Below, piece after piece: positions 50,788 through 54,149 of a DNA stretch of 64,000 nt. The notes beneath the pieces are model-generated. The model was given only the letters and a program-made list of their open reading frames with translations, searched no databases and was not told where the DNA came from. A program made the translations under genes and the position numbers. This DNA comes from a phage, in NCBI GenBank assembly GCA_012557565.1, contig GCA_012557565.1_3926.1; one strand, 5' to 3'. Position 1 is the first letter of the stretch; each line of letters begins with the position of its first letter.

Positions 50788-50821
50788 CCCTTAAAGAGTT
50801 CTTACGAGTATTCTTTAAAGG
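50788..50821 (+). other. conserved-loop hairpin (loop GTTCTTACGAGTAT), copy 1
   Basis: Stem CTTAAAGA/TCTTTAAAG; same loop in a different stem at 54122-54149. Confidence 0.6.
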
Positions 50822-50823
50822 AG

Positions 50824-50897
50824 CAGAAGACCAAATACAGCAAGCAATTTTAATATTTCAAGCCAATTTAATTTGAAAAATTTAAAACTTGGTCTGG
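50824..50897 (+). ncRNA. conserved stem element copy 3
   Basis: 5' arm CAGAAGACCAAATACAGCAAGCA, AT-rich loop with TTCAA/TTGAA hairpin, 3' arm TTGGTCTGG. Confidence 0.5.
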
Positions 50898-50911
50898 TTC
50901 CAACAATTTTA

Positions 50912-51037
50912 CAGAAGACCGTTTACAGCAAACAATAAACAATCTATTTCTCTTATAAAGAAAAGGCGAAGGTTCGAATCCTTCACACGTTACGGCGTGT
51001 TGGTGTAATGGAAGCACTTAAGATAAATACGGTCTGG
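50912..51037 (+). ncRNA. conserved stem element copy 4 enclosing a circularly permuted tRNA-like module (Y-RNA-like candidate)
   Basis: 5' arm CAGAAGACCGTTTACAGCAAACA; then T-arm GAAGG-TTCGAAT-CCTTC; acceptor-like hairpin ACACG-ttacgg-CGTGT; D-arm-like GTGT-AATGGAA-GCAC; 3' arm ACGGTCTGG; no anticodon arm. Confidence 0.55.
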
Positions 51038-51187
51038 TAATCCTCTTTGCAGTGACTTATGGAGCTAATATGTCGTCCCATGAGTGCCGATGAGTTTCTT
51101 GAGCATGATTCTAGATTAGCTTACTAAGAGACAACTCTACAAACCCTTTAGCAAGGTTTGCGTAGGTTACTGCAAAGATGATTTAAT

Positions 51188-51263
51188 GGAAGTGTAGCAG
51201 AATGGTGATGCGGCAGACTTTTAATCTGACAGGCGACGGGTTCGAATCCCTCCACTTCTACCA
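51188..51263 (+). tRNA. tRNA-Lys(TTT)
   Basis: Acceptor GGAAGTG/CACTTCT, anticodon stem GCAGA/TCTGA, loop CTTTTAA, CCA; T-stem has one bulge. Confidence 0.7.
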
Positions 51264-51315
51264 AATTCGCCCCTTAACTGAAGAACACATGCGCGGCTGG
51301 AAACACCCACTCAAT

Positions 51316-51330
51316 CAGTTCTCTACAAAG
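51316..51330 (+). repeat. 15-bp repeat CAGTTCTCTACAAAG, copy 1
   Basis: Identical copy at 52435-52449; both lie 7-14 nt upstream of a tRNA. Confidence 0.7.
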
Positions 51331-51344
51331 GGGCAACTTATAAT

Positions 51345-51421
51345 GGTTCAGTCGCAGATAAGGTAATGCAAGGGTTTCATAAGCCCTATGAATGTGGGTT
51401 CGATTCCCACCTGAACCTCCA
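51345..51421 (+). tRNA. tRNA with anticodon CAT (Met or Ile2)
   Basis: Acceptor GGTTCAG/CTGAACC, anticodon stem AGGGT/GCCCT, loop TTCATAA, T-arm GTGGG-TTCGATT-CCCAC, CCA. Confidence 0.7.
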
Positions 51422-51423
51422 AT

Positions 51424-51498
51424 TGTGGGTTAGCATAAATGGTAATGCAAACGGCTGATAACCGTTAGAAGAGGGTTCGATACCCTCACCTACAACCA
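51424..51498 (+). tRNA. tRNA-Ile(GAT)
   Basis: Anticodon stem AACGG/CCGTT, loop CTGATAA, T-arm GAGGG-TTCGATA-CCCTC, CCA. Confidence 0.75.
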
Positions 51499-51513
51499 AT
51501 TTCAATAAAGTTG

Positions 51514-51542
51514 TTGACATTCAGATGTGACCACTTTATAGT
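51514..51542 (+). promoter_or_regulatory. sigma70-like promoter inside the tRNA cluster
   Basis: TTGACA, 17-bp spacer, TATAGT. Confidence 0.55.
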
Positions 51543-51775
51543 TACCTTAGTTTTCGTTAGCGTAGCGTCTATTTTGCAAACTTAAAAATAAATGCAAACG
51601 ATAATGTTTTTCTGGCAGTAGCTTAATAGGCTAAACACCAGTGAGGTCTTCCAATCCCTCATCAAAGAATTTGGCGTACTAGCCCACGGTATGATTAATA
51701 AAGTGGGCAACATTCTAAAGGGTATCCCTTATGGGGCTTGGCTTAAATGCAATGAGTACCCTTTAAAATGTTAAT

Positions 51776-51852
51776 GCACCCTTAGTTCAACTGGACAGAG
51801 CAAATGACTTCTAATCATTGAGTTACAGGTTCGAATCCTGTAGGGTGTGCCA
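51776..51852 (+). tRNA. tRNA-Arg(TCT)
   Basis: Acceptor GCACCCT/AGGGTGT, D-arm GTTC-AACTGGACA-GAGC, anticodon stem AATGA/TCATT, loop CTTCTAA, CCA. Confidence 0.8.
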
Positions 51853-52016
51853 AATAGTTAGCAGATTGCTTAGACGACCTTAACGGGTCTCCGTGTTGAT
51901 TCAGTTGAGTCAACTTCATAAGGAGGTGGTCTGTATCTCATGTTTCCAGAGCATGTAAAATATTCTGAGAAGAGGCTTGACAGTGTTGTGATAATACGGT
52001 AAGCTTCGAATTATAG

Positions 52017-52099
52017 TATGGGACGATGTTAAGACACTAAGGCATGTGCGTAAGCCTCCAAAACTTACTCAAAGGGGTTCGAATCCTCCGTCCCATGCC
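52017..52099 (+). tRNA. tRNA-Trp(CCA)-like, non-canonical (83 nt; possible pseudo-tRNA)
   Basis: Perfect acceptor ATGGGAC/GTCCCAT, loop CTCCAAA, T-loop TTCGAAT, CCA; about 6 extra nt between acceptor and D-stem. Confidence 0.45.
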
Positions 52100-52112
52100 A
52101 AAGTCTTATTAG

Positions 52113-52785: not shown

Positions 52786-52860
52786 GCTCTTATCGTATAA
52801 TTGGCTATTACGGTTGCCTTGTAAGCAACTTATCAGGGTTCGAATCCTTGTGGGAGCACC
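52786..52860 (+). tRNA. tRNA-Thr(TGT)
   Basis: Anticodon stem GTTGC/GCAAC, loop CTTGTAA, T-arm CAGGG-TTCGAAT-CCTTG, CCA. Confidence 0.75.
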
Positions 52861-52956
52861 AATTTTGAGGTCAAGTGAAAGACCGCTTGAGTCAACTGAA
52901 GACCGTAACAAATTCCACGTAGTTGAGTTAGCGGCACAGCTTCAGACCTCTTCAAA

Positions 52957-53031
52957 GCTCGCTTAGTTTATATGGTAAAGCCCCATCCTTACAAGTTGGT
53001 GAAGAAGGTTCAAGTCCTTCAGCGAGTACCA
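52957..53031 (+). tRNA. tRNA-Val(TAC)
   Basis: Acceptor GCTCGCT/AGCGAGT, loop CTTACAA, T-arm GAAGG-TTCAAGT-CCTTC, CCA. Confidence 0.75.
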
Positions 53032-53032
53032 A

Positions 53033-53110
53033 GTTCCAGTATCCCAATTGGCAGAGGATGCAAGCTCAAACCTTGTATTAGTGACGGTTCGAATCCGTCT
53101 TGGAACACCA
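53033..53110 (+). tRNA. tRNA-Leu(CAA)-like, short variable arm
   Basis: Acceptor GTTCCAG/TTGGAAC, 3-bp D-stem with 11-nt loop, anticodon stem GCAAG/CTTGT, loop CTCAAAC, 6-nt variable region, A73, CCA; 78 nt. Confidence 0.6.
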
Positions 53111-53125
53111 AATTAGGAGATTCCT

Positions 53126-53338
53126 ATGAAGCCTTATGGTAGACATGGTAAAGTTGAAATTGCAAGTTGTGGTTGCTGTGCTTCTCACGATGGTGAAGAA
53201 GATTACTACAAGTGGCGTACAGACCATCGTAGACGCTTTCTCAGAAGAGATAAGAAGAAAGCTAGACAGGAATCTCGAAAGAATATTGCAGAATTAGTTC
53301 AAACGGATAGAGCAGCAACCTACGAAGTTGTTTGTTAG
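53126..53338 (+). CDS. small basic hypothetical protein; 3' end overlaps tRNA-Arg(ACG)
   Basis: 70-aa ORF with AGGAG 7 nt upstream; last about 50 nt lie inside the tRNA gene, so the C-terminus may be an artefact. Confidence 0.3.
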   Translation: MKPYGRHGKVEIASCGCCASHDGEEDYYKWRTDHRRRFLRRDKKKARQESRKNIAELVQTDRAATYEVVC

Positions 53339-53364
53339 GGGTTCGAATCCCTTATTCTGCACCA
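53288..53364 (+). tRNA. tRNA-Arg(ACG)
   Basis: Perfect acceptor GCAGAAT/ATTCTGC, D-arm GTTC-AAACGGATA-GAGC, anticodon stem GCAAC/GTTGT, loop CTACGAA, T-arm AGGGG-TTCGAAT-CCCTT, CCA. Confidence 0.75.
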
Positions 53365-53382
53365 ATTTTAGAAGGTAATTAT

Positions 53383-53610
53383 ATGCGTAAACTCATTATT
53401 GAAAGGCATAAAGATGCTGACAAGATTGAAACAACACAAGTTGGGGACACTGACTTCATTCTTGTAGGTTGGAAATGTGACCCAATAGCAGTTATGAAGG
53501 TTGTTCATGGTCTTGCAGGAATTGAATTTAATCAAATCATATTTGAAACGCTATTACCAGAAAATCAGGATACGTGTAATAACGCATATGTTCTGACAAG
53601 AGTTCGTTAG
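53383..53610 (+). CDS. hypothetical small protein, tandem paralog 1
   Basis: Track ORF 53332-53610 trimmed to Met at 53383 (MRKLIIERHKDADKIE...); 64 percent-like identity by eye to next ORF. Confidence 0.55.
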   Translation: MRKLIIERHKDADKIETTQVGDTDFILVGWKCDPIAVMKVVHGLAGIEFNQIIFETLLPENQDTCNNAYVLTRVR

Positions 53611-53633
53611 GGGTTCGAATCCCTTATTCTGCA
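53606..53633 (+). pseudogene. tRNA 3' fragment (duplicate of tRNA-Arg(ACG) T-arm and acceptor 3' strand)
   Basis: GTTAGGGGTTCGAATCCCTTATTCTGCAC identical to 53334-53362; no matching 5' half upstream. Confidence 0.7.
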
Positions 53634-53654
53634 CAAAATTTAAAAGGGTAACTT

Positions 53655-53882
53655 ATGTTTAAACTCATAGTTGAAAAACACCCAGAAGATGACAAGCTTG
53701 AAACAGGGAGATTTGGAGATACTTTCTTTATCAGAGTTGGCTGGAAAGCTGACCCATTAGAAGTTAGAAAGATTGTCTACAACTTTGCTGGTTTGGAATT
53801 AAAGCAAGTCATCTTTGAAACAATGTTGCCAGAAAATAAAGATACATGCAATAACGCATATATTCTTACAAGAGTTAGTTAG
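53655..53882 (+). CDS. hypothetical small protein, tandem paralog 2
   Basis: 75 aa MFKLIVEKHPEDDKLE... paralogous to 53383-53610 (shared FETMLPENKDTCNNAYILTRV). Confidence 0.55.
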   Translation: MFKLIVEKHPEDDKLETGRFGDTFFIRVGWKADPLEVRKIVYNFAGLELKQVIFETMLPENKDTCNNAYILTRVS

Positions 53883-53956
53883 GGGATTAGTTTACAAGGT
53901 TAAAACCTCGGTCTTTGAAATCGAAGAAGTTGGTTCAATTCCAACATCCCCCGCCA
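53881..53956 (+). tRNA. tRNA-Gln(TTG)
   Basis: D-stem GTTT/AAAC, anticodon stem TCGGT/ATCGA, loop CTTTGAA, T-arm GTTGG-TTCAATT-CCAAC, CCA; 1:72 mismatch. Confidence 0.7.
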
Positions 53957-53958
53957 AT

Positions 53959-54037
53959 GCTCCATTACTCCAATTGGCAGAGAGGCCAGACTTAAAATCT
54001 GTGTTATGTATCGGTTCGAATCCGATATGGAGTACCA
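53959..54037 (+). tRNA. tRNA-Leu(TAA)-like, short variable arm
   Basis: Acceptor GCTCCAT/ATGGAGT, 3-bp D-stem, loop CTTAAAA, about 7-nt variable region, A73, CCA; 79 nt. Confidence 0.6.
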
Positions 54038-54043
54038 AATATT

Positions 54044-54119
54044 AGCAGTGTAGCATAACTGGCAATGCTCCAGCCTCTGAAGCTGAAAGATTAAGGTTCA
54101 AATCCTTACGCTGCTGCCA
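54044..54119 (+). tRNA. tRNA-Gln(CTG)
   Basis: D-arm GCAT-AACTGGCA-ATGC, loop CTCTGAA, T-arm TAAGG-TTCAAAT-CCTTA, CCA. Confidence 0.7.
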
Positions 54120-54121
54120 CT

Positions 54122-54149
54122 TCTAAGGGTTCTTACGAGAGTCCTTAAA
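54122..54149 (+). other. conserved-loop hairpin (loop GTTCTTACGAGAGT), copy 2
   Basis: Stem TAAGG/CCTTA around the loop seen at 50798-50811. Confidence 0.6.

Follow-up and report, generated by a model that had tools for sequence, protein, structure and literature searches.

The DNA analysed here, referred to as the window, is a 64,000-nt stretch from a phage of the Ounavirinae (Felix O1-like). A tRNA cluster in the window contains two hairpins, s1 and s2. Directly upstream of the cluster lies a gene for a Ro60 homologue (48429-49844), whose top nine PDB matches are all Ro60/TROVE, and the neighbourhood of the hairpins also contains YrlA-like RNAs and a tmRNA-like tag RNA. Sigma-70-like promoters are present at 49953-49982 and 51514-51542. 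With no terminator-like site found on the + strand between these promoters and the hairpins, co-transcription of the hairpins is plausible. The cluster is rich in duplications and mobile genes, including a 272-nt tandem duplication and, in relatives, HNH endonuclease genes.

Hairpin s1 (50785-50824, + strand) is a 40-nt interrupted helix located 47 nt 3' of tRNA-Asp. It consists of an outer CUCC/GGAG helix, a C x A mismatch, UUAAAGAGU/AUUCUUUAA, a U x U mismatch, CU/AG, and a UACG loop (50803-50806), and RNAfold gives a folding energy of -12.6 kcal/mol (z -3.1). It abuts Y-RNA-like unit 3; a repeat unit with a bulged helix and a tRNA mimic of the YrlA type lie directly against s1. Immediately 5' of s1 is a short GC-rich hairpin, hp0 (50768-50788, + strand; GGGCU/AGCCC), which has 3-4 nt in common with the outer arm of s1. 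The hp0 stem covaries, becoming GGACU/AGUCC in the more distant relatives L157 and L160; hp0 is not followed by a U-tract, and the terminator scan made no call there.

Hairpin s2 (54116-54155, + strand), also a 40-nt helix, occupies the entire spacer between tRNA-Gln(CUG) (54044-54119) and tRNA-His(GUG) (54151-54227), both on the + strand. Its inner 10 bp, UAAGGGUUCU/AGAGUCCUUA with a UACG loop at 54134-54137, are separated by an internal loop (UUC/AAU) from a basal helix, GCCAC/GUGGC. The 5' strand of this basal helix is the otherwise unpaired 3' tail of tRNA-Gln (G73-C-C-A) plus one spacer nucleotide, and the 3' strand is nucleotides 1-5 of tRNA-His. The basal helix was retained in the MFE fold of a 128-nt stretch comprising the hairpin and tRNA-His.

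Relationship and conservation of the two hairpins

The window contains two exact copies of an 11-mer, GTTCTTACGAG, and no more; both are on the + strand, one at 50798-50808 and the other at 54129-54139. The earlier note had described the surrounding 14-mers, GTTCTTACGAGTAT and GTTCTTACGAGAGT, as the same 14-nt loop presented on two different stems, the second directly before tRNA-His. The sequences are indeed present there, as are the flanking inverted repeats CTTAAAGA/TCTTTAAG and TAAGG/CCTTA, and the second copy ends 3 nt ahead of tRNA-His. The structural description has to be revised on both counts. In RNAfold, most of the 14 nt is stem: C-G and U-A pairs surround UACG, with G.U/U-A or G.U/U.G pairs below, and the substitutions in relatives fit this register. 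The common 14 nt thus form a 5-bp apical stem (GUUCU/AGNNU) with a UACG tetraloop, topping an interrupted helix that reaches about 18 bp in each hairpin. Nor are the stems different, as s1 and s2 are identical at 25 of 38 positions (66%) in a gapless 40-nt frame, or at 27 of 38 (71%) when the Felixounavirus form of s1 is used. This in-register identity indicates that s1 and s2 are paralogues, rather than one loop carried by unrelated stems.

The exact 11-mer match is not significant by itself, since about 3.5 such pairs are expected by chance in the 5.4-kb cluster ((5400^2/2)/4^11). With one mismatch allowed, the motif was found at 5 sites, where 0.88 would be expected. Scored with a covariance model built for the hairpin, s1 reached 65.5 bits and s2 64.0 bits (E ~1e-16), and the next-best + strand match reached 13.8 bits.

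Both copies were found in all the Felixouna-, Moogle- and Suspvirus loci examined, and 242 and 288 phage records matched the s1 and s2 regions, respectively; as identity among close relatives is about 90% along the whole length, much of this conservation is shallow. In the complete 86.9-kb genome of phage KMM4, the tRNA cluster carries two copies on the tRNA strand, and the genome has no others. In Kolesnikvirus, a single copy occupies a third position at a different junction, where it forms the end of the tmRNA-like tag RNA, 1 nt ahead of tRNA-Leu(CAA); its 14-mer is identical, although blastn with the Gln-His query matched only tRNA-His there. The hairpins therefore occur at tRNA/tRNA, ncRNA/tRNA and tRNA/ncRNA junctions, and they persist across four genera and in L157 and L160. 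No such hairpin was found in other DUF2828-encoding phages with tRNA clusters.

In the hairpin alignment, 86.4% of cells are paired, compared with 43-60% in slid-partner controls. Changes on both sides were seen in 11 of the 18 pairs, and none of 500 shuffles matched the observed score; a further analysis of this kind gave a similar picture. The informative variation is confined to a small number of lineages, and in many cases the double changes separate paralogues, not orthologues. An example is pair 12:27 of s1 in the 38-nt fold (alignment columns 13:28), which is A-U, G.U or G-C across relatives. One-sided changes in s2 strengthen the pairing (G.U to A-U, U.G to U-A). Covariance scores on the reverse strand were only 19-21 bits, against 64-65 bits on the tRNA strand, as expected if G.U pairs matter; thus, the hairpins are most readily understood as RNA made from the tRNA strand. 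Compensatory and wobble-mediated changes preserve pairing on that strand only.

The conservation is uneven along the helix. Across 18 distinct variants from three paralogous positions in the close genera, the C-G and U-A pairs of the apex show no change, whereas covariation in the lower stem is free. Hardly any variation among paralogues and genera is seen in the apical helix GGUUCU/AGAGUCC, which includes a tandem G.U/U.G. In deeper relatives, the loop changes to UUCG, UGCG, UAUA or UACA, or the apex is gone, while the helix stays. The loop of s1 is UACG, UGCG or UUCG, and that of s2 is UACG, UAUA or UACA; in L157 and L160, the UUCG loop of s1 caps a perfect helix of 17 bp. In L009, the s2 basal helix is perfect, and in L157 and L160 it is rebuilt with other bases (AAAGUCAU/GUGACUUU), tracking a G4-to-A change in tRNA-His. 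L161 has a 3-nt loop in place of the apex, and the basal GCCA/UGGC pairing to tRNA-His is still there. Because the loop changes in deeper relatives while the helix persists, it is, from these comparisons, the structure that is conserved and not the loop. The suggestion in the earlier note that the hairpins are functional gains support from the conservation with compensatory changes; its argument from a conserved loop on non-conserved stems does not stand. The refuting conditions that it set, a loop frequent outside hairpins or lacking conservation in relatives, turned out in the hairpins' favour: in the phage the motif is confined to them, and relatives conserve them. As a modest result, we regard the hairpins as a family of structured spacer RNAs, undescribed so far and restricted to their lineage.

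A possible role at RNA boundaries

The positions of the hairpins favour a processing or leader role. We give roughly even chances to the reading that s1 and s2 are cis-acting boundary or leader helices, transcribed within a polycistronic tRNA/ncRNA precursor. As rigid, fast-folding spacers, they would part adjacent RNAs and set how the ends are presented to processing nucleases, and RNase P, RNase E or RNase III may read them. In the case of s2, the helix would clamp the tRNA-His leader, holding the 5' acceptor strand until the precursor is cut or refolded, and might thereby affect tRNA-His maturation. After a cut by RNase P at tRNA-His, the inner 10-bp hairpin would remain as a structured 3' trailer of tRNA-Gln. 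Hairpin s1 would serve likewise between tRNA-Asp and the Y-RNA-like modules. Some points fit poorly. The absence of an adjoining tRNA 5' end at s1 counts against the boundary-helix reading, and a stable hairpin right 3' of CCA should hinder exonucleolytic trimming of the tRNA-Gln 3' end, which is awkward for a purely helpful role. The near-invariant apical helix shows less drift than a mere spacer should, and hints at sequence-specific recognition.

If the hairpins guide processing, they would provide handles on the maturation of phage tRNA arrays by host RNases. They also mark a dense ncRNA content, with leader helices, the YrlA-like tRNA mimic, bulged-helix repeats and the tmRNA-like tag RNA placed among the tRNAs, in a very widely isolated group, the Felix O1-like phages of Salmonella, E. 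coli, Shigella, Citrobacter and Erwinia.

The tRNA-His gene is itself under selection, because its acceptor stem covaries in the comparison with L157 (C6-G67 to U-A). C73 is present, position -1 is U, and G-1 is not encoded. Enterobacterial HisRS would be expected to charge this C73 tRNA-His poorly. The G-1:C73 rule for RNase P in the leader of bacterial pre-tRNA-His was reportedly set out by Burkard, Willis and Soll in 1988. Like that system, s2 sits in the 5' leader of a C73 tRNA-His, here in phages of enterobacteria; in the canonical system, however, an encoded G-1 pairs with C73, whereas the phage has U at -1 (A in one relative), with the leader paired to nucleotides 1-5. Wherever the leader forms a helix with tRNA-His nucleotides 1-5(8), the lineage has U or A at -1, and all lineages without that helix encode G-1. 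On the TerL tree, this association needs at least two correlated transitions. The hairpin before tRNA-His might therefore be a dedicated leader clamp that co-evolved with the loss of the encoded G-1, with alternative folding, 5'-end maturation or a non-canonical use of the tRNA; we hold this to be rather unlikely. If the link is real, a phage would here have re-engineered the maturation or identity of tRNA-His, in a form open to direct testing.

Among the known elements nearest in kind are the C(UUCG)G hairpins, reportedly first noted in T4 transcripts by Tuerk et al. in 1988. They share with s1 and s2 a short, conserved form, a UNCG-type cap, and a place in non-coding spacers of phage polycistronic transcripts; they are thought to act via structure and stability, and s1 and s2 may do likewise. 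A UNCG loop sequence is present in both copies in the window (UACG) and in s1 orthologues (UGCG, UUCG). Unlike in C(UUCG)G, the loop is closed by U-A in every copy, with C-G second from the loop, so that the C-G closing pair that gives C(UNCG)G its extra stability is absent from all copies. The s2 loop is non-UNCG in L157 and L160 (UAUA, UACA), and the interrupted 18-bp helix reaches into adjacent tRNAs. An antitermination hairpin of the lambda boxB/nut type has a 5-bp stem, a GNRA-like pentaloop and an adjoining boxA; here the stem is 18 bp, the loop is UACG, and no boxA-like sequence was noted. The scan for intrinsic terminators called neither hairpin, and the A/U-rich stems are followed by GCAGAAG or tRNA-His, with no U-tract. 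Rfam gave no match over s2 (E up to 1) or s1 (E up to 10), except for one at chance level (AfaR, 14.2 bits against a 100-bit threshold, 50780-50891).

Alternative readings

The hint of recognition at the apex leads to a different reading, which we consider possible but unlikely: the near-invariant apical helix and loop may be a site for a phage or host RNA-binding protein, such as the Ro60 homologue in an RNP with the Y-RNA-like modules. The fixed apical pairs above a covarying lower stem and the identical 14-mer in Kolesnikvirus would fit such a site, as would the predicted Ro60 fold of the upstream gene and the position of s1 right beside the bulged-helix repeat and the YrlA-like mimic. The Ro60-binding module of Y RNAs has a GNCGAAN0-1G / GGUCCGA-like motif, located in a bulged stem that the two ends of the RNA, 5' and 3', form together (PMC4201824). 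The hairpins share a neighbourhood with Y RNA/YrlA-type modules (PMC4201824, PMC12135203), but they are separate, self-contained stem-loops in which, by eye, neither GNCGAAN0-1G nor the terminal bulged stem is present. The lack of the hairpin in the other DUF2828-encoding phages also argues against a protein site, as does L161, which keeps the helix before tRNA-His without the apex.

The internal loop suggests a cleavage site instead. Hairpins of the R1.1 class in the T7 early region are irregular RNase III substrates with an internal loop, kept as a protective 3' end after the cut. Like these, s1 and s2 are irregular hairpins with an internal loop between functional RNAs of a phage polycistronic precursor, and by analogy they could be RNase III-type sites that separate the flanking RNAs, with s2 cut in the AAU strand just 5' of tRNA-His. 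Support comes from a T7-like layout, in which 10-11 bp of upper stem are set apart from 4-5 bp of lower stem by an internal loop or mismatch zone (columns 6-9/32-35), and from the perfect 17-bp duplex of s1 in L157 and L160. Against it, the interrupted 18-bp helix is at the short end of the range for RNase III, below the usual two turns or so of dsRNA, the hairpins are shorter than those of T7 and have just 4-5 bp in the lower stem, the lower stem of s2 competes with the tRNA-His acceptor stem, and RNase P alone would be enough to release tRNA-His. The T7 hairpins lie between mRNAs, whereas s1 and s2 lie between tRNAs or ncRNAs. We regard an RNase III role as doubtful.

It is improbable that the hairpins are non-functional relics or a DNA-level element, that is, leftovers of segmental duplication, a homing-endonuclease target or a cruciform. 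The duplications and mobile genes of the cluster, together with a non-folding look-alike at 38930-38965 (- strand), would suit such an origin, but the compensatory changes with G.U intermediates point to selection for RNA pairing on one strand, and the hairpins persist in four genera and in L157 and L160. Slightly less probable still is that an excised hairpin of about 31-40 nt acts in trans as a stable small RNA. Processing at the 3' end of tRNA-Gln and at the 5' end of tRNA-His would free exactly the s2 hairpin, whose apical sequence is kept beyond the needs of pairing; the exposed loop, however, is short and varies in relatives, and no reverse-complement match to a target was found in the window.

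The TadA substrate motif is YUACGAA, which must lie in a stem-loop (PMC12255301), and the UUACGAG apex, matching it at 6 of 7 bases in a gammaproteobacterial setting with UACGA likewise at a stem-loop apex, could in principle mimic the tRNA-Arg(ACG) anticodon loop, so as to be edited (A to I) by host TadA, to titrate that enzyme, or to serve as a decoy for an anticodon-loop nuclease. This reading, which we hold to be very improbable, is largely refuted by the loop variation among relatives: L157 and L160 have UUCG (no A) in s1 and UAUA or UACA (no CG) in s2, and L161 lacks the apex. Loop size and register differ as well, since the covariation (U5-A10, C4-G11) gives a 4-nt, at most 6-nt, loop, the anticodon-arm register forms just 2-3 of 5 pairs, and neither hairpin forms a 7-nt loop on a stem of about 5 bp. 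On the favourable side, UGCG in one lineage would correspond to a hard-wired edited state, and Yersinia phage P778 has a UUACGAG hairpin after tRNA-Asp, on a different stem.

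Two related hairpins in the tRNA cluster

The region is the tRNA cluster of an Ounavirinae myophage, in which ARAGORN called 25 tRNAs at 50010-55238, all on the + strand. A 4.2-kb query of the cluster gave matches in 363 phage records. The closest was the Mooglevirus KMM4, a phage of Citrobacter (95.7% identity over 100%), and the next were Shigella, Escherichia, and Salmonella Felix O1-like phages. An earlier note had described a 14-nt loop presented twice in this cluster on different stems. The repetition was confirmed: the 64-kb window has exactly two copies of GTTCTTACGAG (50798 and 54129), both on the + strand, and none of its reverse complement. 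The inverted repeats named on both sides of each copy are present in the sequence, and the second copy does precede tRNA-His, ending 3 nt 5' of the gene.

The description of the stretch as a 14-nt loop had to be abandoned. According to RNAfold and the substitution pattern, the stretch pairs with itself, forming 5 bp and a tetraloop, CU[UACG]AG, with more pairs below, and in RNAfold the helices of both hairpins continue outwards. The first hairpin (s1; 50785-50824, + strand) follows tRNA-Asp and a short GC-rich hairpin, and the second (s2; 54116-54155, + strand) fills the spacer between tRNA-Gln(CUG) and tRNA-His. Both have a common plan in a gapless 40-nt frame: an outer helix of 4-5 bp is followed by a mismatch zone and an A/U-rich middle helix, and the apical helix GUUCU/AGNNU carries a 4-nt loop. 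The stems are not unrelated either: in register, s1 and s2 are identical at 25 of 38 positions, or at 27 of 38 if the Felixounavirus form of s1 is used. In view of this identity in a common frame, they are diverged duplicates, not one loop grafted on unrelated stems.

By our own estimate, about 3.5 pairs of identical 11-mers are expected by chance within 5.4 kb; thus, the 11-mer alone is not rare. The complete element, unlike the 11-mer, far exceeds what chance would give. A covariance model gave 65.5 and 64.0 bits at the s1 and s2 sites (E about 1e-16) and 13.8 bits at the next + strand match, and a filter-free search with it found no copy beyond these two in the window. The reverse strand of the hairpins scored just 19-21 bits, as expected if G.U pairs count, which indicates that the structure is an RNA on the tRNA strand. 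No Rfam family matched the hairpins, and they are not mentioned in the Felix O1 genome paper or in the other literature searched. The literature search also found no usable Felixounavirus transcriptome or end-mapping data.

A look-alike on the - strand at 38930-38965 (CTTCTAAGG-TTCTTACTAGTATCT) was rejected, since it does not fold (z +0.3). It is contained in about 500 bp (38900-39400, - strand) without an ORF of at least 80 aa and with dense iteron-like repeats (YTAACAAG, TTCTTAACAG), which may serve as an origin or in regulation.

Conservation of helix and position in relatives

We gathered 30 IMG/VR loci via a neighbouring gene. Of these, 26 were loci of Felixouna-, Moogle-, and Suspvirus that reached the sites, and every one had both hairpins. 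In the phage database, the s1 region was matched by 242 records and the s2 region by 288. The complete KMM4 genome (86.9 kb) contained exactly two copies, both in the cluster, in the filter-free covariance-model search.

In s1, one pair occurs as A-U, G.U, and G-C among the relatives, and Felix O1 has the sole A x C. In s2, G.U is replaced by A-U and U.G by U-A. These replacements indicate that the substitutions respect pairing. The loop is UGCG in one lineage, and in the locus L009 the base of s2 is a perfect CCACUUCUAAGG/CCUUAGAAGUGG helix. Over 18 distinct variants, 86.4% of the cells were paired, versus 43-60% with partners slid, two-sided changes were found in 11 of 18 pairs, and none of 500 shuffles equalled the observed values; as the rows are kin and many of the double changes are differences between the paralogues, these statistics show a common architecture, not many independent events.

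More distant contigs were gathered via a neighbouring protein. In L157 and L160, in which this protein is 62% identical, both hairpins are kept and the loops are changed. In their s1, a UUCG loop caps 17 uninterrupted bp, with A-U in place of the C x A mismatch of the window, and the loops of s2 are UAUA or UACA. L161 has only a miniature s2 (GCCA-AUUAAAG-UCU-CUUUAG-GU-GUGGC), from which the apical 14-mer is absent and in which the pairing with tRNA-His is kept. Since these three contigs keep the helix with another loop or without the 14-mer, the helix and its position are what is conserved, while the loop drifts. The premise that the loop is conserved and the stems are not was thus reversed.

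Yersinia phage P778 has the hairpin AGAAUCCUUUUACGAGGGUUCU right after tRNA-Asp, which is the s1 position, and no such elements were found in four other contigs (L158, L159, L162, and L163). A single copy is present in Kolesnikvirus (phages of Erwinia and Salmonella), in which the 14-mer is identical and the lower stem is different (UUCAA-C-CU-A-AAAG ... CUUU-C-AG-A-UUGAA). This copy lies 1 nt 5' of tRNA-Leu(CAA), where it forms the 3' end of a tmRNA-like tag RNA. IMG/VR was also scanned for GTTCTTACGAGAGT. Among the matches listed (at least 120), the 14-mer was also present elsewhere, as expected for 14 bases, and every hairpin-context match outside Ounavirinae sits in a long ORF and is due to chance or coding; the motif was therefore rejected as a general phage element.

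Pairing of s2 with the flanking tRNAs

The basal helix of s2, GCCAC/GUGGC, is built from the two neighbouring tRNAs. Its 5' strand is G73-C-C-A of tRNA-Gln(CUG) plus one base, and its 3' strand is G1-U2-G3-G4-C5 of tRNA-His. In L157 and L160, position 4 of tRNA-His is A, and the strand that pairs with it from upstream is spacer sequence altered to match (AAAGUCAU/GUGACUUU, 8 bp); in L161, the leader pairing is GCCA/UGGC. In the minimum free energy fold of the 128-nt stretch of hairpin and tRNA-His, the basal helix beats the acceptor stem, which is a prediction only, as tRNA folds are often mispredicted.

The tRNA-His of the window (54150-54227 including position -1, + strand) has C73, but U at -1 and no encoded G-1. 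In the tRNA-His alignment, the same was found in all the phages with a paired leader and C73 (the window, Felix O1, L009, L157, L160, and L161), with U at -1, or A in L009. In P778, the leader is likewise paired and -1 is U, but the discriminator is U73. The phages with a 3-7-nt spacer without the hairpin (Kolesnikvirus, L158, L159, L162, and L163) have ...AAUG followed by G, with G-1 encoded. In a neighbour-joining tree of TerL, Kolesnikvirus was the outgroup and (L161, P778) was sister to (L159, L163, L162). This topology implies at least two correlated changes of the leader hairpin and the -1 base. These comparisons of sequences are suggestive, although not proof, of a tie between the paired leader hairpin and the missing encoded G-1. 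The enterobacterial HisRS depends on C73 and on the additional nucleotide at the 5' end with its phosphate. RNase P retains G-1 only where pairing with C73 is possible; for these reasons, a tRNA-His with U(-1)/C73 is unusual. Covariation is nevertheless seen in its acceptor stem (C6-G67 to U-A), and thus the gene is under selection.

The sites of the hairpins are junctions of functional RNAs (tRNA to tRNA, ncRNA to tRNA, and tRNA to ncRNA), and their orientation is that of the tRNAs. Sigma-70-like promoters lie upstream of the hairpins at 49953-49982 and 51514-51542, with no + strand terminator between. We give about an even chance to the reading that s1 and s2 are cis-acting boundary or leader helices of a polycistronic precursor. 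On this reading, helix geometry is the feature kept by selection. The likeliest action would be that s2 holds the 5' strand of tRNA-His and the tail of tRNA-Gln in a defined helix until nucleolytic separation. A cut by RNase P at tRNA-His would then leave the inner hairpin as a structured 3' trailer of tRNA-Gln. Candidate readers of the helix are RNase P acting by itself, RNase E next to the helix, or RNase III inside its internal loop. The hairpins are a new, lineage-restricted example of a familiar kind of element, the structured hairpin in a spacer or leader of phage polycistronic RNA. The finding would be of greater interest if the link with G-1 or a connection with a Ro60 RNP is borne out experimentally.

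Neighbouring RNAs and alternative roles

The gene just 5' of the tRNA cluster (48429-49844, + strand) has Pfam matches to DUF2828 and DUF7788 and is a member of PHROG 850 ('RNA-binding protein'). When the AlphaFold (AF2) model of its product (mean pLDDT 85.9) was compared with the PDB, the first nine matches were all Ro60/TROVE proteins (E 2e-7 to 1e-5, TM 0.44-0.62), among them the phiLo Ro60, from a Thermus phage, and Rsr of Deinococcus. On the basis of this model, the product is a predicted Ro60/TROVE structural homologue. Its homologues in other phages (L026, L029, and L031) also adjoin tRNA genes.

Spacers of the cluster contain four bulged-helix repeat units (50171-50257, 50335-50420, 50816-50903, and 50904-51050, + strand) of the form CAGAAGACC(A/G)WWTACAGCAA ... 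GGTCTGG. Each has an outer stem of 4-5 bp, an AGA bulge, the 7-bp helix AGACCRN/NYGGUCU, and a bulged G, an architecture like that of the bulged helix of Y RNA. Units 1-3 enclose AU-rich sequence only. Unit 4, enclosed by the 7-bp stem AGACCGU/ACGGUCU, contains a tRNA-like core (50947-51017). Its parts are an arm resembling an anticodon arm (loop CUUAUAA), a T arm, an acceptor stem capped with a UACG loop, and a D arm. The order of T arm, closed acceptor stem, and D arm is the YrlA arrangement (PMC4201824), and unit 4 has exactly this permuted order. The Rfam tRNA model gave 30.9 bits on part of this YrlA-like tRNA mimic. The domain is kept in Moogle, P778, L158, L159, L162, and L163, and the Moogle RNA has a 7-bp acceptor stem with GCCA-AACA.

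A tmRNA-like tag RNA (51514-51775, + strand) has its own promoter (TTGACA-17-TATAGT) and a tag frame at 51594-51629, ANDNVFLAVA followed by two stop codons, which lie within a hairpin loop. It resembles tmRNA in Rfam (tmRNA_permuted, 31.3 bits, below threshold), and ARAGORN called a permuted tmRNA in Moogle but not in the window. The tmRNA of Moogle and Felix O1 has already been published (PMC4319497, PMC4392139). The hairpins of the tag RNA covary with Kolesnikvirus, and its 3'-terminal hairpin (51709-51772) has a base similar to that of s2.

The main rival to the boundary or leader helices is a role of the hairpins in an RNP. We keep it as such because s1 lies directly 5' of unit 3, with a GGAG(C) strand common to s1 and the outer stem of the unit, and because the Kolesnikvirus copy forms the end of the tag RNA; the Ro-binding motif is absent from s1 and s2. 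That the hairpins bind a protein is unlikely, and this role stays alive because the apical helix, with its tandem G.U/U.G, is near-invariant across the paralogues. The hairpin apex UUACGAG resembles the TadA motif YUACGAA (PMC12255301), but a mimic of the anticodon loop was rejected, as the paired register is unfit for an anticodon arm and the motif is lost in L157, L160, and L161. A terminator scan ruled out terminators, and coding was dismissed, with no ORF of at least 40 aa across s1 and a spurious minus-strand ORF as the sole one crossing s2 and tRNA-His.

Other features of the cluster were observed. At about 50567-50654 (+ strand) lies a tRNA-Tyr(GUA) that is annotated in Sf18 and Felix O1, where it is flagged as pseudo; ARAGORN misses the window copy, and the Rfam tRNA model gave just 22.8 bits at 50569-50649. 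The YrlA-like unit and tRNA-Lys are separated by a long, highly stable hairpin that includes a three-way junction (51038-51187, + strand; 21-nt arms, -49 kcal/mol, z -5.1). Small ORFs lie among the tRNAs at 53126-53882 (+ strand), and the one at 53126-53338 has an overlap with the 5' half of tRNA-Arg(ACG). A tandem duplication of 272 nt (53330-53601 and 53602-53873) contains two paralogous ORFs of about 75 aa and a duplicated 3' half of tRNA-Arg (53606-53637), and the end of the second of these ORFs falls within the beginning of tRNA-Gln(UUG). Pfam gave no match for the ORFs at 53126-53338 and 53655-53882. The exact 15-mer CAGTTCTCTACAAAG occurs in two spacers (+ strand), at 51316-51330, 14 nt upstream of tRNA-Met, and at 52435-52449, 7 nt upstream of tRNA-Leu(UAG); about 0.01 chance matches are expected, and a copy with one mismatch lies at 31618-31632 on the - strand.
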